NCBI GenBank assembly: GCA_018822365.1
Contig: JAHJKL010000070.1
Location: forward strand, 1,941-65,940
Reading direction: 5' to 3'
DNA: 64,000 bases
DNA from: Candidatus Margulisiibacteriota bacterium
GTDB taxonomy: Bacteria > Margulisbacteria > WOR-1 > O2-12-FULL-45-9 > XYB2-FULL-48-7
The translations under genes were made by a program, and so were the position numbers. Positions 1-17,089 of the stretch are shown here, one piece after another; the stretch's first letter is position 1, and every line of letters begins with the position of its first letter. Below the pieces are notes generated by a model, which ran no database searches, was not told where the DNA came from, and saw only the letters and a list, made by a program, of their open reading frames with translations.

Positions 1-85
1 ATTTTCCGGTCATACCAGGCGGCCAACAAGCTTATAGTCAGAACAAATAACAACCCAGGAGCAACAAATATGTAGAATAGCCCGG

Positions 86-568
86 TCATCTTCTTCTCCC
101 TAAATTATTCGACAGGATCCTGGTCGACCCGAGGTTCTTTTTAACGTCTGAGATCTGCTCGTCGACTTCTTCATATGTAAGAGCGCCCGAAGTACAGCTG
201 GCAACACAGCGCGGGATCTCGCCTTCTGTCAGCCGATCAAAACAGAGGTCGCATTTCGGAGCGATGTGCTTGAAGAGGTCCGGCTGGATCACGCCAAATG
301 GGCAAGCCAATTGGCAGGAATGGCACCCGACGCACTTGACCTGACTGCGCAAGACCAAGCCATCTTCGCTTTTCTTCATCGCCTCGTTCGGGCAAGCGGC
401 GGCGCAAGCCGGCTGATCACAATGCAAACAATGGAGCGGCACATTTGCTTCTCCAGACGGCCCGGCGTGACCGAGCAGAGAGTGCAAGTGATGACCGTAC
501 GCGCAAGCAGCCGCACAGCTGCGGCAGCCGCAACACAGATCCAGGTTCAAATAAATTCTTTTGCCCAT
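86..568 (-). CDS. Polyferredoxin-type 4Fe-4S electron-transfer subunit
   Basis: There are four or more CxxCxxCxxxC(P) motifs (CCGCRSCAAAC, CLHCDQPACAAACP, CVGCHSCQLACP, CDLC...C). It is the last gene of a tightly packed minus-strand oxidoreductase operon. Confidence 0.75.
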   Translation of the reverse strand: MGKRIYLNLDLCCGCRSCAAACAYGHHLHSLLGHAGPSGEANVPLHCLHCDQPACAAACPNEAMKKSEDGLVLRSQVKCVGCHSCQLACPFGVIQPDLFKHIAPKCDLCFDRLTEGEIPRCVASCTSGALTYEEVDEQISDVKKNLGSTRILSNNLGRRR

Positions 569-571
569 GCT

Positions 572-1993
572 TTATCCTTTATTGTTCGCCCGGTACCAGA
601 AAAAGTTTTTCGCCAGGTCGTTCCCCGCAAAATGAGTGATCTCTTCCGGCAAGATCTCTCCTGCCGGTCCGATCTTCCCAACCTCAGCGATAACTTTCTC
701 CAGATCAAAAAGCTCCCTGTTCTGGCCAGGCTTAACTTCATTAACCCGGGAAACAAGCGCCTCAACCTCCAGATCGAACAATTCCCCCAACATAACGAGA
801 TTGCTCTTTCCGCCGGCCGGCTCAACTACCGCTCCGGCCTCAACCAGCCTGCTCCCTGAAAAAATATATCTGCCCTGGGTTTCCAGATGGCTGGCCAGTG
901 GAAAAATCACTTCCTCCGCATTGTTTTTTTTAGCCGGGAAATAACGCGTCCTAACCACCAGTTTCGCCCCCCCAACCAATGGCTCCAGGTCAGAAAGGTC
1001 CTCCCCGAGCAGAAAGATCCCCTGGATCGCTCCCTGATCAAGCTTTTTCTTTAACTCATGATATGGCGCATGCCCCGGACAAAAAGCGTCGATAGCCGCA
1101 TTAACGCCGATCGTGTCGCCGCCGCTGTAAAAAACAAGCCATTTTTTATTGGCCGCTAAACCGGCCAACACCCTGGCAAAATAAACAACCAGATCATTCC
1201 GCTTTTTATTTACCCCTGGAGAAACAATGACCGTCCCTGCCGTTGCGGCGGCAAGTTCTTCGGAGACCCTCTTTAATACATCAATAGGCACACCTATCTT
1301 TTCGATCAACGGCAATATTTCCGCCTCATCTTTGCGCTTTAGCAACCCGATAAGCGCGGCCAGCAAAATTGCTTCGCTCCCCGGTTTATTCTTCAGGTGC
1401 TCGGTCGCGAACCAGGCGGCGTGAGAACGGTTAGGATCAATAACTACGATCCTGGCCCCTTTTTTGCCGTACTTAACATTATTGATCCTTTTTGAAAGTA
1501 CCGGCGAGCGGGTTAAAATGTCGCCAATGATCAATATATATTCGCTGGCTTCAACATCGGCCAATTCACCGGGCCGATCTTCTGAAACCTGCCAGGTCGA
1601 ACCAAGATAAGCGTCTTGATCGGCAGGATCTCCTCCGGCGCAGATCTGTTTGGTCCCAAGTGACACCGCTAAGGCGGCCGCCCCGCTCGCCTCTTCCAGG
1701 CTGGCCAGGGGAGAAACGACGATCCCGATCGAACCGGGGTCGATCCCTTGAAGCTCCCGGCGCACCCTGGAAAAAGCCTCTCCCCAGGAAACCCCTATCC
1801 CGCCTATGCTGGGCTGGGTAAGCCGCCCCGGATGGTTAAGCAATTCATAGTTGTAATACCCGCGAGGACATAGCGCCCCTTTATTGACCTGGCATTCCCG
1901 GTCATAATCGATCGCCTCCGCTTCACGTCCGCTGACCCGATAGGCCAGCCCGCAACCCAGCGAACAAAATAAACAAACTGATCTTTTCACCAT
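572..1993 (-). CDS. Short molybdopterin oxidoreductase catalytic subunit (FwdB/formate-dehydrogenase-like)
   Basis: The N-terminal CLFCSLGCGL motif (Cx2Cx3C) is typical of MGD oxidoreductases, and there is a candidate Mo/W-ligand Cys in 'KQICAGG'. The length of about 470 aa lacks a cap domain, as in FwdB. It is 3 nt from the downstream ferredoxin gene. Confidence 0.6.
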   Translation of the reverse strand: MVKRSVCLFCSLGCGLAYRVSGREAEAIDYDRECQVNKGALCPRGYYNYELLNHPGRLTQPSIGGIGVSWGEAFSRVRRELQGIDPGSIGIVVSPLASLEEASGAAALAVSLGTKQICAGGDPADQDAYLGSTWQVSEDRPGELADVEASEYILIIGDILTRSPVLSKRINNVKYGKKGARIVVIDPNRSHAAWFATEHLKNKPGSEAILLAALIGLLKRKDEAEILPLIEKIGVPIDVLKRVSEELAAATAGTVIVSPGVNKKRNDLVVYFARVLAGLAANKKWLVFYSGGDTIGVNAAIDAFCPGHAPYHELKKKLDQGAIQGIFLLGEDLSDLEPLVGGAKLVVRTRYFPAKKNNAEEVIFPLASHLETQGRYIFSGSRLVEAGAVVEPAGGKSNLVMLGELFDLEVEALVSRVNEVKPGQNRELFDLEKVIAEVGKIGPAGEILPEEITHFAGNDLAKNFFWYRANNKG

Positions 1994-2799
1994 GGATCAG
2001 GTATCTCCTTGACCTGCTCCCAGGTAAAGACCGGGCCATCCTTGCAGCAAAGATGGCTGCCCAGGTTGCAGTGGAAACATTTGCCGATCCCACAGCTCAT
2101 GTTCTTTTCCATCGACAGGTAAATATTTTTATCCCCGATCCCCAGGTCGAGGAGCTTTTTAGTGGCAAATTTCATCATGACCGGCGGCCCACAGACAATA
2201 GCGACCGCCAAGTCTGGTTTAACGTCGCCCGGCTGCATGATCCCGGTCACTACCCCCACCTTCCCCGTCCACGATTCGCTGCCGCGGTCAACGGTTAACA
2301 CCAGGCTGGTCTTTTCTCTTTTACCCCAGTCGGCCATTTCTTTTTTAAACGGGAGATCGTCTGGAGAGCGCGCTCCCAGGCGAAGCTCGATCTTGTTCAA
2401 TTGGTCTAGCTCATGAAAAAGGGCAAGCAGCAGGGCCCGCAAAGGAGCGATCCCCACTCCCCCTCCAATAATATAAATATCCTTCCCATGAAAATCAGGC
2501 AATGGATAAGGGCGACCGAACGGCCCGCGCAGGCCGACCATTTCACCCGGCTTAAGCTCATGCATCGCGCCGGTCGCCTGGCCGGTCTTCATCACCGTGA
2601 ATTCGATCGTTTCACTGTTTTTAGGATCGGAAGATGGAGTAAAGGGACACTCTCCCACTCCCGGCACGGTAACCTGCATAAACTGACCGGATAAAAACGG
2701 GAGACCTTTTTCCGGCTCCAGGACAAAGGTCTTGATCTGCGGCGTTTCCACGATCACTTTTTTGATCTCCGCTTTTATCGGCTGATAAGGATTGCTCAT
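1987..2799 (-). CDS. FAD/NAD(P)-binding [2Fe-2S] oxidoreductase subunit (HydG/AsrB/PyrK family)
   Basis: The N-terminal region resembles a ferredoxin-reductase FAD-binding barrel, there is a GGGVGIAP nucleotide-binding loop, and the C-terminus carries CGIGKCFHCN 2Fe-2S cysteines. It overlaps the next gene by 7 nt. Confidence 0.7.
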   Translation of the reverse strand: MSNPYQPIKAEIKKVIVETPQIKTFVLEPEKGLPFLSGQFMQVTVPGVGECPFTPSSDPKNSETIEFTVMKTGQATGAMHELKPGEMVGLRGPFGRPYPLPDFHGKDIYIIGGGVGIAPLRALLLALFHELDQLNKIELRLGARSPDDLPFKKEMADWGKREKTSLVLTVDRGSESWTGKVGVVTGIMQPGDVKPDLAVAIVCGPPVMMKFATKKLLDLGIGDKNIYLSMEKNMSCGIGKCFHCNLGSHLCCKDGPVFTWEQVKEIPDPW

Positions 2800-3845
2800 T
2801 TGTTAGGCCCACCTCTCTTTGTCAGCTCCTGATCAAGGGCGCAGAAGACCTGGCGCATATCGATGTTCCCGGCGCACCCATCGATACATCGGCCGCACCC
2901 GACACAGGTATAACGGGCTAAACGATCAAAAGAATAGTCAAATTTACAGTGATAGCGGTTTTGCAGCCGCTGGGCAAGCCTGGGCCGGGAGTTCCCCCCT
3001 CCCGCCACCTTGGCATAGCCCGCTTTCAAACAGGCATCCCAGAGTTTATGGCGTTTTCCCCCCAGGCCAACCGCCTCATCAACCAATAAAAAACAGGAAC
3101 AGGTCGGACAGATAAAATTACAAGAACTGCATTCAACGCAATCCTTGGTCAGCTCGCGCCAAACCCCGCTCTCCAGATTTCCCTTATGAAGCTCATGGAG
3201 CTCGTGATCAAAAGAAAATTGCCGGTTCGCCTGTTTTAGTTTTTCTTTAACTTTTTCGCGGGTCTCGCTTTTGATCGCTTCCGCCTGCGGCAGGACCCTG
3301 GCAAAAATATTCCGCTGGTCGTCAACGATCCTTTTCCCCCTGTCACTCCCTACCTCCACGACATATCCGTTAGGAACAACCGCTAGGCTTAGGTCAAAAC
3401 ACCTCGTTGGGAAAGGGGTCCCGCCAACCAAAGGGCAAAAACAGCTGTTGCCGCAATCGGTGCAGTCGGCTCCGATTAAAATCGTTTTTTCGCGGTTGAC
3501 CTGGTAAAAGGGGTCCTGAAACTCTCCTTCGCCGAAAACGCGGTCCAAGACGCTCACGCCCTCCAGGTCGCAGGCGCGCAAACCAAGCAAAACAAGCGGA
3601 CCGGCCGAAATATGGGCTTCCCCCGAAAAATAACGGGCCACCAACTCGGTCGTTTTAAAAAAGTACCCTTTGCCTGGTTCAACCGTTCGATATCCTGAGA
3701 GGTCTATTTTGTCTATATTGCTGCCGTCAACATCAAACCAATATTTGCGGCCATATTCCCTGGCCGGAGCAACAACGTGAGCTTTTTCCATCAGCTGTCT
3801 GATCAATTTTTCAAAGTCTTTATTGTTAACAAAATACTCACTCAT
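2796..3845 (-). CDS. 4Fe-4S dicluster subunit (sulfhydrogenase beta / AsrA-like)
   Basis: The cysteine clusters are CTDCGNSCFCP, CVECSSCNFICPTCSCF and CVGCGRCIDGC. It is the first gene of the operon and overlaps the downstream gene by 4 nt. Confidence 0.65.
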   Translation of the reverse strand: MSEYFVNNKDFEKLIRQLMEKAHVVAPAREYGRKYWFDVDGSNIDKIDLSGYRTVEPGKGYFFKTTELVARYFSGEAHISAGPLVLLGLRACDLEGVSVLDRVFGEGEFQDPFYQVNREKTILIGADCTDCGNSCFCPLVGGTPFPTRCFDLSLAVVPNGYVVEVGSDRGKRIVDDQRNIFARVLPQAEAIKSETREKVKEKLKQANRQFSFDHELHELHKGNLESGVWRELTKDCVECSSCNFICPTCSCFLLVDEAVGLGGKRHKLWDACLKAGYAKVAGGGNSRPRLAQRLQNRYHCKFDYSFDRLARYTCVGCGRCIDGCAGNIDMRQVFCALDQELTKRGGPNK

Positions 3846-3858
3846 GTCGGTATTTCCG

Positions 3859-3906
3859 ATTCTAACAAATAAGCCCCCCGTGTCAAGGTAAAGAAAATGT
3901 TATAAT
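3859..3906. promoter_or_regulatory. Divergent promoter region between the oxidoreductase operon and the DUF192 gene
   Basis: Minus strand: -35 TTGACA (plus 3881-3886), a 16-nt spacer, -10 TAGAAT (plus 3859-3864), then 13 nt to the ATG at 3845. Plus strand: extended -10 TGtTATAAT at 3898-3906, 12 nt before the ATG at 3918. Confidence 0.35.
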
Positions 3907-3917
3907 CTTCCCTTTCT

Positions 3918-4379
3918 ATGCCAATTAACTTATTGATCTTACTGCTAGGCCTGACTTTTTGGACGGTGCTCACGCCTCCCCACATGTCCAACACCGAAGC
4001 GGTCTTTCAGGCCCGGCCGGTCATCAGCGCGACCATCGGCGAGAAAACATATGAACTGGAGATCGCGGACGACCTGGCCAAACGGGGTCGCGGTCTCTCA
4101 TGGCGTAAATCACTGGCCAAAAACCGGGGAATGCTCTTCCTTTTTGAAAAACCGGACCAATATGTTTTTGTTATGGACGGCATGCTTTTTCCCCTGGATT
4201 TTATCTGGCTAAAACAAGGGGTTGTTGTTGCCCTTAAAGAAGATGTCCAGCCGTCCAAACCGGACCATTCCTCGACCAATATCGTTACCAATACACATTT
4301 TGATCAGACGATCGAACTCAACGCCGGAGAAATAAAAACAACCCATATAAAGATCGGCGATCGTGTTTCTTATTTTTGA
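3918..4379 (+). CDS. DUF192 (COG1430) family protein with N-terminal TM/signal segment
   Basis: The DUF192-like core 'GMLFLFEKPDQYVFVMDGMLFPLDFIW' is present, and there is an N-terminal hydrophobic segment. Confidence 0.55.
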   Translation: MPINLLILLLGLTFWTVLTPPHMSNTEAVFQARPVISATIGEKTYELEIADDLAKRGRGLSWRKSLAKNRGMLFLFEKPDQYVFVMDGMLFPLDFIWLKQGVVVALKEDVQPSKPDHSSTNIVTNTHFDQTIELNAGEIKTTHIKIGDRVSYF

Positions 4380-4410: not shown

Positions 4411-7400
4411 ATGAACAAGCCCAAATACTCGATCTCCAAACAGAATGAATTTGTGATCGGGAACTACAATCAGGCCCCGACTTTTTCCAGTTTTTTTCCC
4501 GGAATAGCGGGTATTTTTGGCTGTCCAATGTGGGTTTTTTACGCCAATCGGGGGCAGTGTATCGCCTCTGCCGGCGTCCAGGACAAGAACGGGGCGATCA
4601 TTGAGTTCCACGCCGCTAACAAAGCCTACCGAAATGCCCATCTGCAGGGGTTCAGGACTTTCCTGAAGGTCGACGGCCAATTCTACGAACCATTTGCCGA
4701 AACCTCCCCCTGCCAGAACGAGCTCCGGATCAATCCTTACGATATCAAGCTTATCGAAGAAAACCCCGATCTTAAGATCAGGGTCGAAGTTCATTTTTTC
4801 AATATTCCCGATGAGCATTTCCCGGCCCTGGCCCGGACGGTCAAGATCGTTAATCTGGGTAAAAAAGCCCGCCAGGTAGAAGTTGTCGACGGCCTGCCGA
4901 TCATCATCCCCTTTGGCTTTGAAGATTTCCTCCTCAAGAAAATGAGCCAAACGATCGAGGCCTGGTGCATTGTTGAAAATCTTGATCAGGGGGTCCCCTT
5001 CTACAAGCTAAAGGTCCTGCCGGCCGACAACGCCGAAACCAAACTGCTTAAAAAAGGGAACTTCTACCTCCCTTTCTGCCAGGATGGCCAGCCGGTCGCG
5101 ACCATCGTCGACCCAACGGTCGTCTTTGGCGAAAACAGCAGCCTGGAGAGGCCGGACAATTTTTTGGGTAAAAGTTTTAAAGTACCCGGAAAGCAAATGA
5201 CCGATGGATTTACTCCGGCCGCCTTTGCCCACAAGAAATTCACCCTGACCGGTGATTTTGAGCTCTCCTCGATCATTGGCCAGATCGACAGCCTCGACCT
5301 GCTAAATAACGACAAACCCCGACTGATGAGCCGAAGCTACCTGGAGGCAAAAGCTGCCGCCAACCAGAACCTGATCAATGGGATCGGCGATTCAATGGAC
5401 ATCCGGAGCGCCAGCCGGAGCTTTGATCTTTATTCCCGCTACACCTTTCTGGACAACGTCATGCGGGGAGGGCTCCCGCTCATGATCGGCGGCAAACCGA
5501 TCTATCTCTACTATCGCAAGCATGGCGACATGGAACGCGATTACAACGACTTCAAACTTATGCCAACCTATTTTTCCCAGGGGAACGGCAACTACCGCGA
5601 CATTAATCAAAATCGGAGGAACGACCTGTTTTTTAACCCGGAGATCAAAGAGAGCAACATTGTCCGCTTCTTTAACCTGATCCAGCTTGACGGCTTCAAC
5701 CCGCTGGTCGTGCTGGGGAGCAAATATTTCATCGAGTCGTACCACACCGCGGAAACGCTGGCCAAGAAACACCTGCGGGAACCGGAAAAGCAGGCGATCG
5801 AAAAGATCGCCCGGCCGTTCATTCTGGGCGAGCTGCTCAAAGAATTTGAGCTCGAAGGGGTCCAATACCAGACCACACGCGAGGCCTTTGCCTCCGACCT
5901 GCTGCAGAGCAGCGAGGTCGAGGAAGGGGCGGTCCATGGCGAAGGGTTCTGGATCGACCATCCCTTTTACAACACCGATTTACTGGAAAGTTTTGAGGCG
6001 GTCTATCCCGACCGGATCACCGACGTTCTCTTTAACCAAAAAAACCTGACCTTTTTCGACAATGATCATGTCGTCGTCCCGCGCCAGGAAAAATACAAGC
6101 TCTGTGACGGCAAGGTCCGCCAGTATGAAAGCGTAAAACTTGATCCCGAAAAAGCGGCCCTGATCAACCACCGGGCTGTCAACAAAAACGCCGTCCGGGT
6201 CGACCACGGCAAAGGGAAGATCTACCATACCACCCTGGCGGCCAAGCTCCTCTGCCTGATCGCCAATAAAGCGGCCACCTTTGATGCCGCCGGGATCGGC
6301 CTGGAGATGGAGGCCGACAAGCCCGACTGGTATGATGCTCTTAACGGACTGCCGGGGCTTTTAGGCTCCTCCTTGTCCGAAACCCTGGAGCTAAAAAGAG
6401 TAGCCGCCTACCTGCTCTTGCGCCTGGAAAACGGGAAGGAGCTCGTCTTGCCGGCCGAAGTCAAAGAATTTATCGACCACCTGCTCCCCATCCTGGCCGA
6501 AACAGACAGCCACAAATATTGGGAGACAACCTACCAGCTGAAAGAAAAGTACCGCCAGAAAATCAAACTTGGGATCGCTGGGAGCGAAAGCGCCATTGGA
6601 CCACAGGAAACGGAGCGGCTGCTCGGGCTGGTTATTGCCCGCTGCGACCAGGCAGTGGAAAAGGTCTTGTCCAAATACGGCAATTACTACACCTATTTCG
6701 TCAACGAGGTCAGCTCGTACGAAGAGCTAGGCCAGGAGATCAGGGTCAAAGGGTTTTGCCAGAGCCCCCTGCCTCTCTTCCTGGAGGGGTTTGTCCACGC
6801 GCTCAAGGTCGAACGGGACGCGAGCATTTACCAGCGGGTCAAAGAGAGCCCGCTCTTTGACAAAAAACTGAAGATGTACAAGGTCAATGCCCCGCTGACC
6901 GAAATGCCGGTCGAGATCGGCCGGACCCGGATCTTTGCCCCAGGCTGGCTGGAGAACGAATCGGTCTTTGTTCACATGGAATACAAATATTTGTTGGAAT
7001 TATTAAAGGCCGGATTATACAAGGAGTTCTTTACCGACTTCAAAAACGTGCTGGTCCCTTTTATGGACCCCAGGGTTTACAAGCGGAGCATCCTGGAGAA
7101 TTCTTCGTTCATCGTCAGCTCCGCCCACCCCAACGCCAAAAATCACGGACGGGGTTTCATTGCCCGGCTCTCGGGCGGGGCAGCCGAATTCATCGACATG
7201 TGGCTGACCATGACTACCGGGAAAAGGCTCTTCTTCCTCGATCAGACGGGAAAGCTCTGTTTCCAGCTCAAGCCGGTCCTCCCCGCCTGGCTTTTTAAAC
7301 AGGGGGAATTAAGCTTCAGGCTTTTTGGCAAGATCGAGGTCGTTTACCTCAACTCCAAAAGAAAAGATTCCTTTGACAAGCTCCCTCTCTCCTATAAATT

Positions 7401-7509
7401 ATTTTTTGACGACAAAGAAATCGAGATCGCCCACCCCATTATCCAAGAACCTTACGCGTCAATGATCAGGGAGCGGAAGGTCAAAAAGATCGTGGCGCGC
7501 CTCTCTTAG
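4411..7509 (+). CDS. Large (1032 aa) GH94-clan-like glycoside phosphorylase (candidate GH149/GH161-type)
   Basis: The motifs 'NGNYRDINQNRRND' and 'DKPDWYDALNG' parallel the GH94 'GFRDSNQDTLG' and 'ADWNDCLNLDQG' catalytic-region motifs found in the neighbouring GH94 gene. It is co-oriented with the GH42 and GH94 genes. Confidence 0.5.
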   Translation: MNKPKYSISKQNEFVIGNYNQAPTFSSFFPGIAGIFGCPMWVFYANRGQCIASAGVQDKNGAIIEFHAANKAYRNAHLQGFRTFLKVDGQFYEPFAETSPCQNELRINPYDIKLIEENPDLKIRVEVHFFNIPDEHFPALARTVKIVNLGKKARQVEVVDGLPIIIPFGFEDFLLKKMSQTIEAWCIVENLDQGVPFYKLKVLPADNAETKLLKKGNFYLPFCQDGQPVATIVDPTVVFGENSSLERPDNFLGKSFKVPGKQMTDGFTPAAFAHKKFTLTGDFELSSIIGQIDSLDLLNNDKPRLMSRSYLEAKAAANQNLINGIGDSMDIRSASRSFDLYSRYTFLDNVMRGGLPLMIGGKPIYLYYRKHGDMERDYNDFKLMPTYFSQGNGNYRDINQNRRNDLFFNPEIKESNIVRFFNLIQLDGFNPLVVLGSKYFIESYHTAETLAKKHLREPEKQAIEKIARPFILGELLKEFELEGVQYQTTREAFASDLLQSSEVEEGAVHGEGFWIDHPFYNTDLLESFEAVYPDRITDVLFNQKNLTFFDNDHVVVPRQEKYKLCDGKVRQYESVKLDPEKAALINHRAVNKNAVRVDHGKGKIYHTTLAAKLLCLIANKAATFDAAGIGLEMEADKPDWYDALNGLPGLLGSSLSETLELKRVAAYLLLRLENGKELVLPAEVKEFIDHLLPILAETDSHKYWETTYQLKEKYRQKIKLGIAGSESAIGPQETERLLGLVIARCDQAVEKVLSKYGNYYTYFVNEVSSYEELGQEIRVKGFCQSPLPLFLEGFVHALKVERDASIYQRVKESPLFDKKLKMYKVNAPLTEMPVEIGRTRIFAPGWLENESVFVHMEYKYLLELLKAGLYKEFFTDFKNVLVPFMDPRVYKRSILENSSFIVSSAHPNAKNHGRGFIARLSGGAAEFIDMWLTMTTGKRLFFLDQTGKLCFQLKPVLPAWLFKQGELSFRLFGKIEVVYLNSKRKDSFDKLPLSYKLFFDDKEIEIAHPIIQEPYASMIRERKVKKIVARLS

Positions 7510-7530
7510 TTTTGCTACAATGTGTGAACT

Positions 7531-9300
7531 ATGTACCCTTTTGGCGTAACTTTTTACCCCGACCAGTGGCCGCTCGGCACCTGGGAGGAGACCTTTAAAA
7601 AGATCAAAGAGAGCGGTTTAAATACTATTCGTTTTGGTGAGATGGCCTGGGACTGGGTCGAGCCGGAACCGGGGAAGTACCGCTTCTACGACCTTGACCG
7701 GGCGCTCGACCTTTGCGAAAAGATCGGCCTGCAAGTTCTGCTGGGCCTCCCTACCTCCCAGGTCCCAAGCTGGTTTTATCGAAAATACCCGAACAGCCGG
7801 CCGGTCGCCCAGGACGGGACCCTCTATCCGGAATACGGTCCCCGACCCAATATCTGCAAAGACAATCCCCATTACCGGATGCACGCCGAAAAACTGGTCC
7901 GAACTATGGTCAAGCGCTACAGCAAGCATCTGGCGGTCGCTATGTGGCAGGTCGACAACGAACCGGTCTATCCACCCCTTGACCACACCACCTCCAACGA
8001 CTTTTGCCACTGCGAACATTCCCGCCAGGCCTTTATTAAATGGGCCAGGGAAAAATACGGAACGATCAAAAAACTGAACGATGCCTGGGGGACCAGGTTC
8101 TGGACGACTACCTTCTTCTCTTTTAACGATATCCTGACCCCCAAAGCGGGGATCTGGGAAGCGGTTTCTCCGCATATTTTCCTCGACTGGTTCCGTTTCA
8201 AGACCGACAGCTTGAGCCAGTGGATCAACCACCTGGCCGACGTTGTCCGGGAATACGATAAATTCCACAAGGTTGGGACCAACGGCTTTGTCGGGATCTG
8301 CACCCGGGTTCCCGACCACAGCAAAATGGTCGGCAACCTCGACTGGTACGGGCTCGACATTTACCCCAAAGGGGGACGGATGGACCCGCAGGGGCTCGCC
8401 TTCCACTATGACCTGTGGCGGAGTTTTGTGAGGGGGACCAAAGCAGAATTCCACATCACCGAACTCCAGGGGGGACAGAATGTCCGCTGGGGCGCCCCGG
8501 AATATGTCGAGGGGCCGGAGATCCGCGGCTGGACGACCGCCGCGCTCGAGCATGGAGCCGAAGCGATCCTCTACCACGCCTGGCGGCCGCCGCTGTTTGG
8601 CGCCGAGACCGGCGGGTTTGGCATTTGCAATGTTGACGGATCATCCAGCAAGCGGCTGGAAGTAATCAAGAAGCTTGCCGGAGACATTCGCTCCGGCAAA
8701 CTTAAAAAAGCCAATTGCAAAGCTAAGCTCGCGATCGCTTATTTGCGAAGCAGTGAGATCCAGTCGTATCAGGAGCAAGGCCCGCCGCGCGGCATTGCCG
8801 GACAATGGGAAGCGGTCAGGGGCGATATCGGGATAATGTATTCGATCCTGTCGCTGGGAGGAGCTTATTCGGTCCTTTTCCAAAAAAGCGAACCGGCCGA
8901 TTTTATTTTTGAGCGCGAACTTGATAGCGGCGACCTTCCTTATAAAGTTATTTTAATGCCAAACCCCTACCTGCTTTCTCAAAAGCAATACGATAATCTG
9001 AAAAAATGGATCAGCGCCGGCGGCAAGCTGATCACCGAAGCCCGCTTTGGCCTGAAAAATGAAATGGGGCATCTGCTTGAACACCCCTTTCTGGAAGACC
9101 TGATCGGTGAAAAGTACGAATTCACCGCCCCCACTCCAACCGGCTTTATTGACGGACTGCAAGGTCGCCCGCGCAAAGAACAAGTTTTCACCAAGAAGAT
9201 CGGCAAGGGAAAAGCGGTTTACGCCAACTTCAGTCTCTTTTTGCAGATCAAGAACGGCAATAAAAAGTTGGCCAACCTGGTCAACAAAGAGCTGGCCTAA
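7531..9300 (+). CDS. GH42-family beta-galactosidase-like glycoside hydrolase (short, 589 aa)
   Basis: The N-terminus 'FGVTFYPDQWPLGTWEETFKKIKESGLNTIRFGEMAWDWVEPEPGKYRF' matches the GH42 TIM-barrel start. An 'VDNEPVY' acid/base-type motif and 'HITELQGG' are present. Confidence 0.7.
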   Translation: MYPFGVTFYPDQWPLGTWEETFKKIKESGLNTIRFGEMAWDWVEPEPGKYRFYDLDRALDLCEKIGLQVLLGLPTSQVPSWFYRKYPNSRPVAQDGTLYPEYGPRPNICKDNPHYRMHAEKLVRTMVKRYSKHLAVAMWQVDNEPVYPPLDHTTSNDFCHCEHSRQAFIKWAREKYGTIKKLNDAWGTRFWTTTFFSFNDILTPKAGIWEAVSPHIFLDWFRFKTDSLSQWINHLADVVREYDKFHKVGTNGFVGICTRVPDHSKMVGNLDWYGLDIYPKGGRMDPQGLAFHYDLWRSFVRGTKAEFHITELQGGQNVRWGAPEYVEGPEIRGWTTAALEHGAEAILYHAWRPPLFGAETGGFGICNVDGSSSKRLEVIKKLAGDIRSGKLKKANCKAKLAIAYLRSSEIQSYQEQGPPRGIAGQWEAVRGDIGIMYSILSLGGAYSVLFQKSEPADFIFERELDSGDLPYKVILMPNPYLLSQKQYDNLKKWISAGGKLITEARFGLKNEMGHLLEHPFLEDLIGEKYEFTAPTPTGFIDGLQGRPRKEQVFTKKIGKGKAVYANFSLFLQIKNGNKKLANLVNKELA

Positions 9301-9380
9301 ATTTTTTTCCTCTTTTCTCCTCGCTAGTTTTATGCTAAAATAACTGATAATCCCCACAAATAGTAGAAAGGAAAAGCATC

Positions 9381-11723
9381 ATGTCTAAGTACGGTCATTT
9401 CGACAAAAAGAATAAAGAGTTTGTGATCACCCGCCCCGACACCCCGCTCCCCTGGATCAATTATTTAGGAGCCGACGAATATTGCGCCCTGATGTCAAAC
9501 ACTGCGGGAGGCTACAGTTTTCATAAAGACCCGAAAGAGCGGCGGCTGACCCGCTACCGCTACAATAACGTCCCAATGGACCGCGGTGGTCGTTATATTT
9601 ACATTCGCGACAACAAAACCGAAAAGTTTTTCTCCCCCTCCTGGCAGCCGACCATGAAACTCGACAAATACGAATGCCGCCACGGGATCGGCTACACTGT
9701 CATTAACTCTGAGTACGCCGGGGTCAAGACCAAGACAACCTATTTTGTCCCGCTTGGTGAAAACCTGGAGATCTGGATGCTCGAGATCAGCTCCAATAAA
9801 GATCGCGATCTCTCGGTCTTCCCGTTTGTTGAGTTCTGTCTCTGGGATGCCTTAAACGACATGACCGACTATCAATACAACCTGAATATCGGCCAGACCG
9901 AATACAAAGACGGGATCATCTATCACCTCTCCCGCCACCGGGTCAATCCTGATCTCGTCGGTTTCCTCGCCTGCGCCAACGCTCTGCCAAAAGGTTTTGA
10001 CACCCAGCGCCGCGACTTTATGGGAACTTACGGCGATTTCTCCGCCCCGCGCGGGGTCGTCGAGGGAAAGATGAAAAACTCGATCGCCTGCGGCTGGTCG
10101 CCGGTCGGCGCGCTTAAGATCCCGGTCAAGCTGAAAAAAGGGGAAACAAAAACCCTGATCTTTGTCCTCGGCTTTGAAGACAATCTCGAAGGTCCGGCAA
10201 AGAAAGTGAAACAGTTCAGCAAGAAAGAAGTCATTGAAAAAGAGCTCAAGAAGCTGGCCGAATACTGGGAAGGGAACCTCAATAAGTTTGCCGTCGAAAC
10301 CCCTGATGAAGAACTGAACCTGATGGCCAACGTCTGGAACCAGTACCAGTGCCGGACCACCTTTAATTGGTCCCGCTCCGCTTCTTATTATGAATCAGGG
10401 ATCGGCCGCGGCATGGGGTTCCGCGACTCCAACCAGGACACCCTCGGTTTCGTTCACATGATCCCGGGTAAAGTTAAAGAACGGATCAAAGACCTGGCCG
10501 CCACCCAGCTAAAAGATGGGAGCGCCTACCACCAATATTCACCGCTCTACAAGAAGGCCAATCCTTCCGACCACAAATACGGCGACGACCACCTCTGGCT
10601 GATCTTTTCAACCGCCGGTTATGTTAAAGAGAGCGGCGATCTTAACTTCCTCAAAGAAGAAGTGACCTTCGCGGGCGAAGATTCCGGGACAATGTACGAA
10701 CATCTCGCCCGGGCGATAGGCTTCTCGACCTCCAACATCGGCGAGCACGGGATACCGCGGATCCTTTTTGCCGACTGGAACGACTGCCTCAACCTGGACC
10801 AGGGAAAAGGAAAAGCGGAATCGGTCATGGTGGCACAGATGCTGGTTGGGGCCGCGTATGAAATGGCCAAGCTAGCCGAACTCCTCGGTAAAAAAGAAGA
10901 CGTCAAAAAATACACGACTATTGCCGATGAGATGAAAGCGGTGATCAACGAAAGGTGCTGGGATGGCCAATGGTACACCCGCGCTTATACCGATGAGCTG
11001 GAACCTGTTGGCTCCAAGAGCTGCAAGGAAGGGAAGATCTATCTGGAAAGCCAGGCCTGGGCGGTCCTCTCGGGCACTGCCGATGAAGAACGGGCCAAGC
11101 AGTGCATGGATTCAGTAAAGAAAAACCTCTCGACCGAACACGGGATCATGGTCATGACCCCGCCTTACTCCAAGTTTTACTGGCAGCTTGGTTCGATCGG
11201 CGTTTATCCGCCGGGACTCAAGGAGAACGGCGCGATCTTCTGCCACCCTAACCCGTGGGCAATGATCGCCGAGTGCCTGATCGGCCGCGGCGACCAGGCT
11301 TACGCTTATTACCGGGCGATCCTCCCTTCGGCCCGCCTCAAGATCGCCGACCTGCACAAGACCGAACCGTACGTCTACTGCCAGATGATCGCCGGCCGCG
11401 ACCACAAGGATTTTGGCGAAGGGAAAAACTCCTGGCTGACCGGCTCCGCCTGCTGGAACTTTGTCGCCATGTCGCAATATATCATCGGGGTCCGCGCTGA
11501 CTATAAAGGGTTGATGATCGACCCGTGCATTCCCAAGGCTTGGAAAAGCTTTACCGCCCACCGGGAATTCCGCGGAGCGATTTACAATATCTCAGTTAAA
11601 AATCCTAACGGGGTCAGCAAAGGGATCAAACAAATCTCGATAGACGGCAAAGAATTAAAATCCAATGTTTTGCCGGTCGGCAAAGCGGGACAAGAATATA
11701 ACATTGAAGTTGTAATGGGGTAG
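9381..11723 (+). CDS. GH94 disaccharide phosphorylase (cellobiose/laminaribiose phosphorylase family)
   Basis: The N-terminus 'FDKKNKEFVITRPDTPLPWINYLG...NTAGGYSF' is a classic GH94 start. The motifs 'GFRDSNQDTLG' and 'ADWNDCLN' are present, and there is an RBS AGGAA upstream. Confidence 0.8.
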   Translation: MSKYGHFDKKNKEFVITRPDTPLPWINYLGADEYCALMSNTAGGYSFHKDPKERRLTRYRYNNVPMDRGGRYIYIRDNKTEKFFSPSWQPTMKLDKYECRHGIGYTVINSEYAGVKTKTTYFVPLGENLEIWMLEISSNKDRDLSVFPFVEFCLWDALNDMTDYQYNLNIGQTEYKDGIIYHLSRHRVNPDLVGFLACANALPKGFDTQRRDFMGTYGDFSAPRGVVEGKMKNSIACGWSPVGALKIPVKLKKGETKTLIFVLGFEDNLEGPAKKVKQFSKKEVIEKELKKLAEYWEGNLNKFAVETPDEELNLMANVWNQYQCRTTFNWSRSASYYESGIGRGMGFRDSNQDTLGFVHMIPGKVKERIKDLAATQLKDGSAYHQYSPLYKKANPSDHKYGDDHLWLIFSTAGYVKESGDLNFLKEEVTFAGEDSGTMYEHLARAIGFSTSNIGEHGIPRILFADWNDCLNLDQGKGKAESVMVAQMLVGAAYEMAKLAELLGKKEDVKKYTTIADEMKAVINERCWDGQWYTRAYTDELEPVGSKSCKEGKIYLESQAWAVLSGTADEERAKQCMDSVKKNLSTEHGIMVMTPPYSKFYWQLGSIGVYPPGLKENGAIFCHPNPWAMIAECLIGRGDQAYAYYRAILPSARLKIADLHKTEPYVYCQMIAGRDHKDFGEGKNSWLTGSACWNFVAMSQYIIGVRADYKGLMIDPCIPKAWKSFTAHREFRGAIYNISVKNPNGVSKGIKQISIDGKELKSNVLPVGKAGQEYNIEVVMG

Positions 11724-11744: not shown

Positions 11745-11766
11745 AGGAAATCGATTTCCTATTTTA
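11745..11766. terminator. Bidirectional hairpin terminator between convergent genes
   Basis: A perfect 16-bp palindrome AGGAAATCGATTTCCT is followed by ATTTTAT, lying between the GH94 stop (11723) and the stop of the minus-strand gene (11759). Confidence 0.4.
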
Positions 11767-12310
11767 TGGCAACTACCTTCGTCTTGGCGATCGTTCGACC
11801 GTCAACCACGACCCTGACAAAGTAGACCCCGTTGTCTACGGCTTCGCCAAAGACAGATCTGCCGTCCCAGACGACCCGGCTATAGCCGTCACTGCCGCGA
11901 TTGGCGCTGGTATCCGAGATCAGCCTGATCAAACTCCCCGACAGATCAAAAATATAGGCTTTTACCGGGGCATCGGTCGCATATTTATAGGCAATGGTCA
12001 CCGGCTGGCTTTCCGGAATAAATGGGTTGGGGTAAACCAGGGTCTCTCCTTCGCCGCTCGGGATTATCGCGACTGCTCCTCCCGCTTGGGGAAAAAGCGG
12101 CGTATAGACCATTGACGCCAATCCGACGCTTCCTCCGTAGCTGCCGCTGCAGATCAATCCGGCGATGCTTTCCCCCGCTACTCCATAATTAATAAAATTT
12201 GTTCCGGTAGAAGTGGCCGGACCCATGGTTAACGCCTCCGGGCTGGTGCTATAAGCAAACCCGGGGGATAAAAACAAAACCAGGCACACAATGACCAGGA
12301 GTAATCTCAT
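11759..12310 (-). CDS. Secreted protein with FlgD-Ig-like / T9SS-type C-terminal sorting domain
   Basis: There is an N-terminal signal peptide (MRLLLVIVCLVLFLSPGFA). The C-terminal 'YPNPF...YIFDLSG...WDG...NGVYFVRV...K' pattern matches Por_Secre_tail / FlgD Ig-like domains. Confidence 0.55.
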   Translation of the reverse strand: MRLLLVIVCLVLFLSPGFAYSTSPEALTMGPATSTGTNFINYGVAGESIAGLICSGSYGGSVGLASMVYTPLFPQAGGAVAIIPSGEGETLVYPNPFIPESQPVTIAYKYATDAPVKAYIFDLSGSLIRLISDTSANRGSDGYSRVVWDGRSVFGEAVDNGVYFVRVVVDGRTIAKTKVVAIK

Positions 12311-12379
12311 ATTTAAATCCTATAGTTTTTCACCCGGGGTGTCAAGAAATGCTATAATTACCAAGCAAGAGGTGGTTTT
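12311..12379. promoter_or_regulatory. Divergent promoter region
   Basis: Plus strand: extended -10 TGcTATAAT at 12350-12358, then RBS AGAGGTGG before the ATG at 12380. Minus strand: -35 TTGACA (plus 12340-12345) with a weak -10. Confidence 0.35.
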
Positions 12380-13273
12380 ATGAAAACGATTAATTGCGCG
12401 GTTACGTTGCTATTGTTTTTTTGCTTGGCCGTTCCCGCGCTGGCCGTGCCGCAATATTTAAATTATCAGGGGGTCTTGCGTGACGACCAGGGACGCCTGG
12501 TTGCCGGGACCAAGTCGCTGACCTTTAAGCTCTATGATGTTTCAACATCCGGGACCTCTCTCTGGGAAATGACCTCCCCCGAAGTCGCGGTCAATAACGG
12601 CCTCTATAATGTTCAGCTTGGCCCACTTGGTTACGCCGAGCTTGCCTCCGGCCGCCGCTGGCTCGAAATTGCCATTGGGACAGAAACTCTTTCTCCCCGG
12701 CTCGAGATCCTCTCCGTCGCCTACGCGGTAACGGCGGGCCAGGCCGAATCGGCGACCACTCTTGGGGGATACTCTCCAGCCATAACCGGGAGCGGGAGCT
12801 TTATTCCGGTCACAACTAGCGGAAAACTTGATGCGTCAGTCATTCCAACTTCCAGCGGCGGAAATGCCGATACGGTCGACAGCTTTCACGCCAACTCAAC
12901 CGCTACCGCCGGGCAGATCTTGCCCCTTGACAGCAATAAACAGCTCAAAGGGATGTCGGTTTCAGCGGAGGCTAGCGGGAACAATTACGCTTTGTTTGTT
13001 AATGGAGGGAAATTTGGGGTTAAAACCGGATCGAACATGAGCGTGGGGACCGGAACGATTACAACAGCTAGCGGGGTCTCCTTTGTCGATGTTACCAACA
13101 CAAGTATTACACCAAATAGTTTAGTGTTTCTAACAGTTGGATCTGCTGGCGCAAACAGTCATGGGGGAATAAAAGTTACAACCATTACTAATGGAGTAAA
13201 GTTTAGAGTTGCTACAATGGACAGTAGCCCTGCAACCGTTGATATCCCTTTTAATTATCTAGTTATTAATTAA
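12380..13273 (+). CDS. Secreted beta-rich protein with N-terminal 'INYQG' motif (tail-fibre-like module)
   Basis: There is a signal peptide. The stretch 'VPQYLNYQGVLRDDQGRLVAGTKSLTFKLYDVSTSGTSLWEMTSPEVAVNNGLYNVQLG' is a motif recurrent in large secreted proteins of uncultivated bacteria. The rest is Ser/Thr/Gly-rich. Confidence 0.5.
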   Translation: MKTINCAVTLLLFFCLAVPALAVPQYLNYQGVLRDDQGRLVAGTKSLTFKLYDVSTSGTSLWEMTSPEVAVNNGLYNVQLGPLGYAELASGRRWLEIAIGTETLSPRLEILSVAYAVTAGQAESATTLGGYSPAITGSGSFIPVTTSGKLDASVIPTSSGGNADTVDSFHANSTATAGQILPLDSNKQLKGMSVSAEASGNNYALFVNGGKFGVKTGSNMSVGTGTITTASGVSFVDVTNTSITPNSLVFLTVGSAGANSHGGIKVTTITNGVKFRVATMDSSPATVDIPFNYLVIN

Positions 13274-14241
13274 TAGGAACAAGTATTAATCGAGAAGTCT
13301 AGCAATTGAGGTGTGTCAACTACATTTGGCGATGTAAAAACAAATCTAACGTTTGCACATTGTTTATCAAATCCGTTATCAGTTTGAATTAAATCTCCAT
13401 TTAATGGCAACCAGGCGGACCAATTTGATCCGCAGTCTCCATTTTGAGTTTCAACATAAATATTTGTCCCATTTTGGCTCAAAATATTCATAACAACATT
13501 GGCTCCGTTTCCAAGATTATTTGGCAATGGAACGTTAATTGCTACTAGATATGAACCATATGTCTGCCCATTTAATATTAATGCGCCAGCAACTGAAAAA
13601 GGGTCTAAACTCCCAGATGGATCAACAGTCCCTATGATCCAGTTGTCTGTCTCAGAATAATTCTGTGGCGCGCAAACCGGCCCATCGGCTACGTCCGCTT
13701 CTGCCTCAACAACATCCTGAATCACATCTTCGGTAATGTCCGGAATTATATCCTGCGCGATATCCTCAATAACATCGGGGATAATATCCGGTTTAATATC
13801 TTCCGCAACATCCTGGACCACATCTTCGGTAATGTCCGGGATAACATCAAGTAACGTGTCCAGAGGGGAATCTTGTTCCACGTCAGGTAATACATCCGGC
13901 AAGACATCAGGGGTGTCGTTGTCCACATCAATAATAGTATCCAGCGCGACATCGGCTAAAGCGTCGGCCTCTTTCCCCCCGTCTAAGACATCTTCAACCG
14001 TATCGGTTAAAACATCTTTACCGTCAACGTCGGTCAATGAGGCATCGGTTAATGTTTGCTCTTTTCCCGGCGCGAGCATCTCCGCGGCAAAAGAACAACC
14101 GATTGCCAGATGAGCGGCGGTTGCCATCGCCGCTAAGCCTGACAATTGGCCAAGCTTGGCGGCCCGTATATTTGGGGTTGCTTTTGGCATCGATGTTTGT
14201 GGACGAATCCTGGAAACCATTACCGACAATCTACTGATCAT
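13270..14241 (-). CDS. Secreted (lipo)protein with acidic 8-aa tandem repeats and a Cys-containing C-terminal domain
   Basis: The ATG at 14241 is preceded by a GGAGGG RBS, and the signal peptide ends in a lipobox-like AIGC. About 15 repeats of the type 'PDI(T/I)EDV(V/I)Q' occupy residues ~60-190. The ORF-track TTG at 14253 is less likely to be the start. Confidence 0.55.
   Translation of the reverse strand: MISRLSVMVSRIRPQTSMPKATPNIRAAKLGQLSGLAAMATAAHLAIGCSFAAEMLAPGKEQTLTDASLTDVDGKDVLTDTVEDVLDGGKEADALADVALDTIIDVDNDTPDVLPDVLPDVEQDSPLDTLLDVIPDITEDVVQDVAEDIKPDIIPDVIEDIAQDIIPDITEDVIQDVVEAEADVADGPVCAPQNYSETDNWIIGTVDPSGSLDPFSVAGALILNGQTYGSYLVAINVPLPNNLGNGANVVMNILSQNGTNIYVETQNGDCGSNWSAWLPLNGDLIQTDNGFDKQCANVRFVFTSPNVVDTPQLLDFSINTCSY
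13690..13900 (-). repeat. In-frame 24-nt tandem repeat array (encodes the D/I/V-rich octapeptide repeats)
   Basis: A visible 24-nt periodicity (e.g. ggtaatgtccgggataacatc / ggtaatgtccggaattatatc variants) encodes 'DITEDVVQ/DVAEDIKP/DIIPDVIE...'. Confidence 0.6.
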
Positions 14242-15547
14242 TTTTCCCTCCAATATTCACCATTGACAGCGAAAAGTTGGTCTGGCCAAATTGCAATAAG
14301 TGGTTCCGCCTGATCTGCCTTAGCTCGTCAACAAAGACCCGGGCCGAAGGATGGCGGTTCTCAGCTTTTTTTTGAAATGCCTTGGTAAAAAAATCCGACA
14401 GCGGTTCGCCCAGAAAGGCAAAATCAGGAAGCGGGATGTTCTCGTCCATTACCCGCCGGCCGTAGGCCGAGGCATCATCGGTCGGCTTGATCGGATAAGG
14501 GGCTCGTCCCGTGATCAGCTCAAAAACAATGACCGCCAGGGCGTAATAATCGGCCCGCCAATCTGCCTCTTCCCCCCGCCAGACTTCCGGCGACATATAA
14601 AGAGGGGTACCAAATACTCCTTGTTTATAAGCTTGAGTAAGCTTGAGCGATTTTTTCCCCAGATCACGCCTAACATATTTGGCCAAACCCCAGTCACCGA
14701 TCTTGAAGCGATCGCGATCTTCCCCTTCGGTCCGGTAGACAAAAATGTTGTCAGGTTTAAGGTCGCGGTGGACTATCCCCTCCCTATGGACCGACAGCAA
14801 AGTCTCGCCGATCGAGATCGCCAGGTCCAGAACATAATCAACCGGGAAATGGTTGACCCCTTCCTGCTGTTGTTTTTTTTCAACAATGTTTTCCAACGTT
14901 CCTGAAGGCATAAATTCCATGGTAATGTATGGGATCGAACCATTAAAACTATGCAGTGGCCTGCCAGTGAGGGCGGTAAAGGTCTTCGGGCTAAGCCGAC
15001 CCAGGTCATAAAGATGGACCACCCCTTCGATCACCAGTCTCGCCTGGTTTCTCGCTTCCGCGCTTTCAAACCGGGCGATCGTCGCCGGGTCATTGAGCGA
15101 CCCTTCAAGCGGTATTTTTAACACGACATCCAGGTCAAGGCGCCGGTCATAGGCTAATATTGTTGACGCCATCCCTCCCTGGCCTAACGGTCTTTTGACC
15201 TCATAACGCTCCATAAATGACTGGTGAAGGTGGTCTTCTTTCATCGCCTGGAGAGCTGTCATTTCACCTTTTTGCAATTCCAGCTCTGCCGCATTGCCGG
15301 CTAACGTCAGTCGATCAGAAACCAAGACCTTATGCGCGCCATAACCCAACACCGCGCTCGCCAATGCCGCGACCAGGTGCGACCACGGCTTATAGAGCGG
15401 GTCGTTAAAAGAAGCTCTGACGCTCCCGTAGGCCCCGCCAACCGCACAAGCCGCGATCAATGCCCCCCTGGCTACATTGGAAGCAACTCGATGCCGGTTG
15501 GCCAACCCATCAACTCGAGCCAGCTGTTTAGTGATCGAACTGACCAT
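14231..15547 (-). CDS. Hanks-type Ser/Thr protein kinase, N-terminally membrane-anchored
   Basis: Kinase motifs are GQGGMASTI (Gly-rich loop), VVLKIP, HRDLKPDNIF, IGDWGLA and GTPLYMSPE. Two hydrophobic segments lie at the N-terminus. The start ATG overlaps the upstream stop (TAATG). Confidence 0.8.
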   Translation of the reverse strand: MVSSITKQLARVDGLANRHRVASNVARGALIAACAVGGAYGSVRASFNDPLYKPWSHLVAALASAVLGYGAHKVLVSDRLTLAGNAAELELQKGEMTALQAMKEDHLHQSFMERYEVKRPLGQGGMASTILAYDRRLDLDVVLKIPLEGSLNDPATIARFESAEARNQARLVIEGVVHLYDLGRLSPKTFTALTGRPLHSFNGSIPYITMEFMPSGTLENIVEKKQQQEGVNHFPVDYVLDLAISIGETLLSVHREGIVHRDLKPDNIFVYRTEGEDRDRFKIGDWGLAKYVRRDLGKKSLKLTQAYKQGVFGTPLYMSPEVWRGEEADWRADYYALAVIVFELITGRAPYPIKPTDDASAYGRRVMDENIPLPDFAFLGEPLSDFFTKAFQKKAENRHPSARVFVDELRQIRRNHLLQFGQTNFSLSMVNIGGKNDQ

Positions 15548-17079: not shown

Positions 17080-17089
17080 CTTTTTCTCC

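Follow-up and report, generated by a model that had tools for sequence, protein, structure and literature searches.

At the left edge of a 64,000-nucleotide (nt) stretch of a Candidatus Margulisiibacteriota genome (contig JAHJKL010000070.1; this whole stretch is the window), four co-oriented open reading frames (ORFs) occupy positions 86–3845 of the minus strand. In reading order they encode an iron–sulfur subunit resembling sulfhydrogenase-beta (HydB/ShyB) and AsrA (349 amino acids (aa); 2796–3845), a FAD, NAD(P)H and [2Fe–2S] subunit resembling sulfhydrogenase-gamma (HydG) and AsrB (270 aa; 1987–2799), a truncated molybdopterin-family subunit with domains I–III only, which we call MoL (473 aa; 572–1993), and a four-cluster ferredoxin subunit of the HycB/CooF/DmsB type (160 aa; 86–568). 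The first two junctions are overlaps of 4 and 7 nt, and the third is a gap of 3 nt. A putative sigma-70-like promoter, recognized by consensus match only (TTGACA, 16-nt spacer, TGnTAGAAT; 3859–3886, minus strand), has 11 of 12 hexamer matches and an extended −10 TG, and the ATG at 3845 follows 14 nt downstream of it. An initial annotation, made from the sequence of the window, had read these genes as an enzyme of four subunits. Their positions are confirmed, as is their domain content: Fer4_22 in the first protein; FAD_binding_6, NAD_binding_1 and DHODB_Fe-S_bind in the second; Molybdop_Fe4S4 and Molybdopterin in the third; and Fer4_11 in the fourth (Pfam, NCBIfam). Its statement that MoL has no in-frame TGA for selenocysteine also holds, the 473-aa ORF having no in-frame stop.

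The four-subunit appearance is an artefact of the window edge. The start of the operon lies inside the window and the remainder lies beyond it: positions 3–89 of the minus strand already translate to MTGLFYIFVAPGLLFVLTISLLAAWYDRK, the start of a 308-aa NADHdh-family (NuoH/HycD) protein encoded on L001, a near-identical Logan contig (SRR2540949) that reaches 5.4 kb past the window start. This fragment, severed by the edge, is the 5′ end (first 29 codons) of a gene for a NuoH/HycD/MbhM-like membrane subunit (1–89, minus strand); its start codon and the stop codon of the 160-aa gene run into each other as ATGA (4-nt overlap). The annotation was right that a sulfhydrogenase/AsrAB-type NAD(P)H module is encoded beside a multi-cluster ferredoxin and a short subunit of the molybdopterin family, but not to take them for a self-contained four-subunit enzyme.

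The hydrogenase genes that follow lie outside the window and are known from L001 and from homologous loci. After the 160-aa gene, L001 encodes the NuoH-like protein, a NuoB-like small subunit, a NuoC-like protein, a 395-aa [NiFe] large subunit, a 584-aa antiporter-like protein and small membrane subunits. Loci L002 and L003 (58% identity in the 473-aa protein) and L006 (59%) add genes for a NuoK-like protein, a second antiporter-like protein, a HycF/NuoI-like 2×[4Fe–4S] protein and a HycI protease, the last of which is also present in L029. The large subunit of L001 carries the motifs RICGICSTSH and DPCYCC and a 38-aa processing tail; RxCGxCxxxH, DPCxxC and a tail of 34–46 aa are intact in all 19 loci that have a full-length large subunit. 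Its best matches in the Protein Data Bank (PDB) are MbhL (E = 4e-88) and HycE (5e-82), which, together with the NuoH-like and Mrp-like membrane subunits, assign the downstream hydrogenase to group 4 and not to group 3b. The overlap of the window with L001 is not identical at every base: between them, the 473-aa protein has two differences, Glu-Cys versus Asp-Asn at residues 33–34 (window 1894–1899), and by sequence the two are closely related strains.

A scan of GTDB species representatives yielded 20 genome loci, in which gene order was read as far as each contig reaches. The order AsrA-like, AsrB-like, MoL, HycB-like, NuoH-like, small subunit, NuoC-like, large subunit holds in 20 of 20, and antiporter-like and HycF-like genes come next wherever the contig is long enough. 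Their sources are metagenome-assembled genomes of Saganbacteria/WOR-1, Margulisiibacteriota, Omnitrophota, Krumholzibacteriota and Latescibacteria. Among these 20 and the additional loci L028 and L029, none carries the four genes without hydrogenase genes, and no locus examined has an AsrC-like gene. The gene order shared by L001, L002 and L006 and the [NiFe] motifs therefore place the four genes in the promoter-proximal part of the operon; judged by sequence, they are about the first third of a single operon of some 14 genes for a group 4, Mrp-antiporter-linked, membrane-bound [NiFe]-hydrogenase.

The gene cluster itself has been described before. In Saganbacteria RX5A it was reported as an ‘enigmatic’ group 4 [NiFe]-hydrogenase, with an Mbh-like function as a guess (Matheus Carnevali et al. 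2019, PMC6349859), and the ‘Mbh-Mrp-oxidoreductase type’ is also covered by Meheust et al. (bioRxiv 10.1101/765248). The RX5A cluster has the same asrA-like and asrB-like genes, an unclassifiable molybdopterin protein, a cooF/hycB-like gene, homologues of NuoH, B, C, D and I, two antiporter-like subunits and small membrane subunits; L006 comes from the RX5A genome itself. The window represents another species (58–59% identity to the RX5A-type loci), and the published accounts, which speak of a ‘molybdopterin-binding domain’, consider the molybdopterin protein a possible catalytic subunit. The literature search found no experimental work on the cluster. What is new here is evidence that this ‘molybdopterin oxidoreductase’ is a relic like ElpA and NuoG and not a catalyst: the 473-aa protein lacks both the PF01568 domain and the metal ligand, and cofactor-free proteins are its likeness.

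In most other members of the family, a gene for a tetratricopeptide-repeat (TPR) protein of about 225 aa stands between the HycB-like and NuoH-like genes (L007 4985–5659, L008, L015, L021 and L022). It is absent from the clade of the window, in which those two genes overlap by 4 nt, and its product may assist assembly. In two loci the HycI gene is followed by small redox genes: in L002 (19865–20497) they encode a DUF1858 ‘hybrid-cluster-protein-associated redox disulfide’ protein, a YruB-type glutaredoxin-like protein and a 57-aa 2×[4Fe–4S] ferredoxin, and in L006 (19727–19936) the DUF1858 protein only. A DUF1858 gene also lies upstream in L017. The genes after HycI could encode accessory redox partners.

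The first two proteins are relatives of the electron module of sulfhydrogenase. The 349-aa protein contains Fer4_22 (E = 1e-24) and matches the beta subunit of Pyrococcus furiosus sulfhydrogenase I (9nez_B) at 2e-47; it scores 184 bits against ShyB (cutoff 690) and 178 bits against HydB, both under the NCBIfam equivalog cutoffs, and 129 bits against AsrA (TIGR02910; cutoff 323). It has 15 invariant cysteines, with C131 and C300 present in 83–89% of loci (18 loci); its cluster count and wiring are judged from this conservation only. The 270-aa protein matches the gamma subunit of the same enzyme (9nez_C) at 3e-48 and scores 164 bits against the sulfhydrogenase-gamma equivalog (HydG/ShyC; cutoff 650) and 196 bits against AsrB (TIGR02911; cutoff 289). 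Its GGGVGxAP motif and the [2Fe–2S] cysteines C236, C241, C244 and C252 are invariant in 19 loci, and its FNR/PyrK-type FAD/NAD(P)H site is the sole recognizable substrate site among the four proteins. Because every equivalog cutoff is missed by a wide margin, these are relatives and not orthologues of the named proteins. The 160-aa protein contains Fer4_11 (5e-20), has HycB3, HycB, NrfC/PsrB and FdnH chains as its PDB matches, and carries 16 invariant cysteines in four CxxCxxCxxxC-type groups (20 loci). Its C terminus bears a conserved basic tail (...N..S.R.LSN..GRRR) in 20 of 20 loci, which has no obvious iron–sulfur role.

MoL matches Molybdop_Fe4S4 (PF04879) at E = 2.6e-10 and Molybdopterin (PF00384), and the N-terminal CxxCxxxC...C motif noted by the initial annotation is present as C7, C10, C14 and C42, kept in at least 94% of 82–88 homologues. 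The same annotation had placed a cysteine at the expected Mo/W ligand position, and this does not hold. In three independent alignments (phmmer to D. desulfuricans NapA, MAFFT to Escherichia coli FdhF, and L-INS-i with FdhF, NapA and NuoG), the column of Sec140 in formate dehydrogenase H (FdhH) and Cys140 in NapA is occupied in MoL by Ala124, and in the family by Ala (60), Ser (15) and Phe (4; n = 82). The cysteine of the window protein, Cys118, lies six residues upstream at a position that is not conserved (Ser 37, Ala 13, Cys 11; n = 82). Cys118 was considered as a metal ligand and ruled out, being Cys in 11 of 82 members only and six residues off the ligand column in all three alignments.

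The dinucleotide-binding part of the protein is also missing, and lack of the MGD-binding domains is what the initial annotation itself had named as grounds for refuting its reading. MoL has no Pfam match to Molydop_binding (PF01568, domain IV) and ends just past the segment aligned to FdhH His585–Thr592, near FdhH residue 604. A hidden Markov model (HMM) of domain IV, built from longer relatives, detected E. coli FdhF, NapA and NuoG as positive controls and found no free-standing FwdD-like domain IV ORF, whether in the 64-kb window or in any of the short-form loci. Within domains I–III, MoL retains 40 of the 145 columns that are identical in FdhF and NapA, and the cofactor-free E. coli NuoG retains 39. 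The changed columns include FdhH His141, Asn176, His181, Asp213, Asp429, Thr433, Asp478 and Arg581; MoL has Ala-Asp at the columns of FdhH 140–141, and the Gly334 and Gln335 columns beside Arg333 are replaced. Against PF00384 MoL reaches 56 bits, above the gathering cutoff and close to NuoG (64) rather than NapA (246), and against the formate dehydrogenase alpha model TIGR01591 it reaches 95 bits (cutoff 666) over residues 6–216 only. The likeness in length to FwdB drawn by the initial annotation extends to the domain I–III architecture but not to family membership, as TIGR03129 gives 28.7 bits against a cutoff of 327.8, over residues 174–286 only.

In structure, MoL comes closest to ElpA, a truncated FdhA that was shown not to bind molybdopterin (PMC12350162), and its best PDB sequence match is StnC's FdhF-like domain, which lacks the pterin cofactor and was termed catalytically inactive by its authors (PMC10482914). 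The same operon type also contains relatives of about 590–610 aa that have domain IV and reach up to 121 bits against PF00384. These too lack the cysteine, having Glu/Gln-Asp or Asp-Asp at the ligand columns, and no long form was found in cultured organisms, the close relatives all coming from metagenomes. In a rough, distance-based neighbour-joining tree that is saturated at depth, and in which the node joining all MoL proteins has 24% bootstrap support, short forms without domain IV fall in two places; this suggests that domain IV was lost at least twice in the family with the operon retained.

From these features we infer that MoL is quite probably cofactor-free. It looks like a relic of formate dehydrogenase H that acts as a cluster-only scaffold or wire, and not like a formate or CO2 reductase. 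Because domain IV and the Cys/Sec ligand are absent and MoL resembles ElpA, NuoG and StnC, the NAD(P)H-linked formate, CO2 or related reductase proposed by the initial annotation is unlikely. A Pfam search of the 40 largest other ORFs of the window, which is 64 kb of a genome of about 1.7 Mb, returned housekeeping and glycan-utilization genes only, with no molybdenum cofactor (Moco), Mo/W transport or hyp genes among them; a sample of this size is uninformative.

Several observations weigh against a cofactor-free MoL. Asp125, adjoining the ligand column, is present in 80 of 82 members and is shared by the long relatives. Residues 157–200 (GDILTRSPVLSKRIN.VKYGKRGN.I.VIDPN.THTSWFATTHL) are almost invariant, including Asp186-Pro187; they align to E. 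coli FdhF 174–216, a stretch that holds N176, H181 and P182, identical in FdhF and NapA, and that we take to be the first beta–alpha–beta unit of domain II, part of the dinucleotide-binding region in true enzymes. Foldseek ranks true formate dehydrogenases and cofactor-free domains equally as matches to MoL, and arsenite oxidase has an alanine at the ligand position. The C-terminal segment 454–466 (HFGNN.L.KNFFWYR) is likewise almost invariant, in a family in which homologues share only about 40% overall identity. A simple ‘dead relic’ does not explain the conservation of 157–200 and 454–466, which may mark subunit interfaces or a residual nucleotide pocket.

Taken together, the explanation that we regard as the best, and as somewhat more probable than not, is that these four proteins are the soluble arm by which electrons enter an ion-translocating group 4 hydrogenase from the NAD(P)H side, with MoL as a relic within it. 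In the working that we infer, with NAD(P)H as the physiological substrate, NAD(P)(H) would bind to the gamma/AsrB-like subunit and exchange hydride at its FAD. Electrons would pass from the [2Fe–2S] cluster of that subunit to the iron–sulfur clusters of the beta/AsrA-like subunit, and then through the four [4Fe–4S] clusters of the HycB-like subunit and the HycF/NuoI-like protein to the small subunit and the [NiFe] site, where H+ and H2 would be interconverted. The redox reaction would be coupled to ion movement through the NuoH-like and the two antiporter-like membrane subunits. MoL, with a [4Fe–4S] cluster and no Mo/W-bis(pyranopterin guanine dinucleotide) centre, would serve as scaffold or wire, like the C-terminal domain of NuoG or ElpA in the Elp–Hdr complex. 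By homology with formate hydrogenlyase it would dock onto the HycB-like protein through its FS0 cluster, which might be on the electron path or off it, like N7 of NuoG.

The standard potentials (E0′) of NAD(P)+/NAD(P)H and H+/H2 are −320 and −414 mV, so that H2 formation from NAD(P)H runs against a difference of about 90 mV, or about 18 kJ/mol. Evolution of H2 would consequently need an ion gradient or very low H2 pressure, and the reverse reaction could pump ions. The enzyme would either vent NAD(P)H electrons as H2 at the expense of an ion gradient or conserve energy by reducing NAD(P)+ with H2. More tentatively, and with slightly less confidence than an even balance would give, it may be an NAD(P)H-coupled group 4 hydrogenase whose arm, composed of a sulfhydrogenase-I-type beta–gamma pair, a Mo-free formate dehydrogenase relic and a HycB wire, was assembled independently of NuoEFG as a convergent second ‘N-module’. 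Against an NAD(P)H-driven arm of this kind stand three points. The case for NAD(P)H as substrate comes solely from homology of the beta–gamma pair. In L002, the operon is closely followed by a gene for a small ferredoxin, so that ferredoxin could be a second or even the main partner. The group 4 hydrogenases in the literature that we found are linked to formate, CO or ferredoxin only, and we know of none shown to use NAD(P)H.

The principal alternatives differ in what they make of MoL and of the electron carrier. One is an enzyme resembling formate hydrogenlyase with an unconventional active Mo/W site: the pterin would be kept, with the metal held without a protein ligand, as in arsenite oxidase, or by Asp125; the part of domain IV in covering the site would fall to another subunit; and formate or another substrate would be oxidized, with electrons passing to H+ and/or NAD(P)+. 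We judge this unlikely. The association of MoL with a HycB-like protein and a group 4 hydrogenase does mirror FdhH–HycB–Hyc, Asp125 and the Rossmann-like segment 157–200 with its Asp186-Pro187 are nearly invariant, and relatives encoded in operons of this type retain domain IV and reach higher PF00384 scores. According to its published description, Saganbacteria RX5A also has Moco biosynthesis genes elsewhere in the genome, together with a separate bona fide FdhA (PMC6349859). However, domain IV is missing from the short form in cis and in trans, and no conserved Cys, Sec or Ser is found at or near the ligand column. The His141, Asp429, Thr433, Asp478 and Arg581 columns are not conserved, those of Gly334 and Gln335 are replaced, and consensus retention is no greater than in NuoG. 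The top structural and sequence neighbours over the whole length are proven cofactor-free proteins, and domain IV seems to have disappeared more than once with the operon still in place.

A ferredoxin-dependent, Mbh-type hydrogenase is another candidate, to which we give little credence. Here the beta–gamma, MoL and HycB arm would be a second entry or exit for electrons, allowing confurcation, or would exchange electrons between ferredoxin and NAD(P)+ with H2 as overflow. The hydrogenase core is closest to the ferredoxin-dependent MbhL, an ‘Mbh-like’ function was guessed in the published account of the RX5A cluster, the step from NAD(P)H alone to H2 is uphill, and the 57-aa ferredoxin, glutaredoxin-like and DUF1858 genes follow the operon in L002 and/or L006. 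Yet the sole flavin subunit is of the simple FNR/PyrK type, with no recognizable bifurcating flavin site; the downstream ferredoxin gene is outside the conserved core in most loci; and no ferredoxin docking site is identifiable in the sequence. The free-standing, soluble, four-subunit NAD(P)H-linked Mo/W formate or CO2 reductase of the initial annotation has, in our estimation, almost no chance of being correct. Its genes are adjacent, co-oriented and of the right domain kinds, and the length and domain I–III architecture of MoL do resemble those of FwdB/FmdB, but the stop of the 160-aa gene overlaps the NuoH-like start, the order of the four genes and the hydrogenase genes is invariant in the 20 loci and in L028 and L029, the evidence against a Mo/W centre applies equally, and the equivalog cutoffs of FwdB, Fdh-alpha, AsrA, AsrB, HydB and HydG are all missed widely.

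The proposed NAD(P)H-side arm can be set against known systems. In E. coli formate hydrogenlyase (FdhH–HycBCDEFG, group 4a; 7Z0S/7Z0T), as here, a molybdopterin-family subunit and a HycB-type four-cluster subunit feed an arm of the HycF/HycG/HycE type, and HycC/HycD-type membrane subunits and a HycI protease are present. The window operon differs in a MoL that has neither Sec/Cys140 nor domain IV and in which the His141 and Arg581 columns are unconserved; in the additional sulfhydrogenase-I-type NAD(P)H module and two Mrp-type antiporter-like subunits; and in separate genes for the NuoC-like protein and the large subunit, the HycE match beginning at HycE residue 190. With ElpA, NuoG and StnC, MoL shares the molybdopterin-enzyme fold, a retained N-terminal [4Fe–4S] site and the lack of a metal ligand, with consensus retention equal to that of NuoG. 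ElpA, like MoL, also lacks the MopB/domain IV region and is paired with a flavin/iron–sulfur hydride-carrier dehydrogenase subunit. Unlike these proteins, MoL is encoded as a polypeptide of its own within a hydrogenase operon, neither fused nor, as ElpA is, associated with Hdr. It is also longer than ElpA (473 versus 339 aa) and keeps the strongly conserved domain II segment, and its lack of cofactor would be deduced from sequence where that of ElpA was observed.

The beta and gamma subunits are homologous to those of P. furiosus sulfhydrogenase I (group 3b, HydBGDA, 9NEZ) and of AsrABC, with the same gene order. Here they are partnered, by way of MoL and the HycB-like protein, with a membrane-bound group 4 hydrogenase and not with a cytoplasmic group 3b hydrogenase or the sirohaem subunit AsrC. 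FwdB/FmdB differs further from MoL, which has no conserved Cys ligand and no FwdD-like partner, and whose operon has no FwdA or FwdC genes. Membership of AsrABC, the sulfhydrogenase I holoenzyme, FwdB or FdhH was considered for these proteins and ruled out by the missed equivalog cutoffs and by absent partner genes or active-site residues.

Beyond the operon promoter, a divergent DUF192 (COG1430) gene (3918–4379, plus strand) occupies the same spot in L001, L002, L003 and L006 and was not found beside the operon in more distant loci. It is followed by a glycan-phosphorylase cluster (4411–11723, plus strand) comprising a gene for a 1031–1032-aa protein, a glycoside hydrolase family 42 (GH42) gene (7531–9300) and a GH94 gene of the cellobiose/chitobiose-phosphorylase type (9381–11723). 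The 1031–1032-aa protein has no Pfam match but matches GH161 beta-1,3-glucan phosphorylase structures at E = 1e-219 (9qqk_A, 9h8v_A). This gene and the GH42 and GH94 genes also flank the operon in the RX5A-type loci L002 and L003, so that the window shares its DUF192, GH161 and GH42 flanks with these loci; L006 was compared for DUF192 only. These common flanks place the source of the window in a related Saganbacterium. Elsewhere in the window there are two genes for eukaryotic-type Ser/Thr protein kinases, with a leucine-rich-repeat gene directly upstream of the second (14231–15547, minus strand; 37482–38111 and 38196–39080, plus strand), and five ORFs of 183, 297, 327, 540 and 279 aa that have no Pfam match at E ≤ 1e-5 (within 11759–14253, 15547–17169 and 17754–18593).

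Annotation pipelines label MoL ‘formate dehydrogenase’, ‘FwdB’, ‘YjgC’ or ‘selenocysteine-containing dehydrogenase’, which can wrongly imply formate metabolism. If MoL is a relic, NAD(P)(H) is left as the sole evident soluble substrate of the complex. Coupling of NAD(P)H, H2 and ion movement by a group 4 hydrogenase is not described in the literature that we found, and to our knowledge no such link to an ion gradient is known. If the proposed arrangement is correct, Saganbacteria, Margulisiibacteriota, Omnitrophota, Latescibacteria and Krumholzibacteriota would tie their NAD(P)H pool to H2 and to a membrane ion gradient through one enzyme, and models of fermentative redox balance and energy conservation would change for Saganbacteria and other uncultured phyla. 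The complex would also be a convergent analogue of the complex I N-module and NuoG on a working hydrogenase. It would thereby offer a present-day counterpart to the route proposed for the origin of complex I, whereby the formate dehydrogenase of a hydrogenlyase-like enzyme decayed to an iron–sulfur scaffold and an NAD(P)H dehydrogenase was added.

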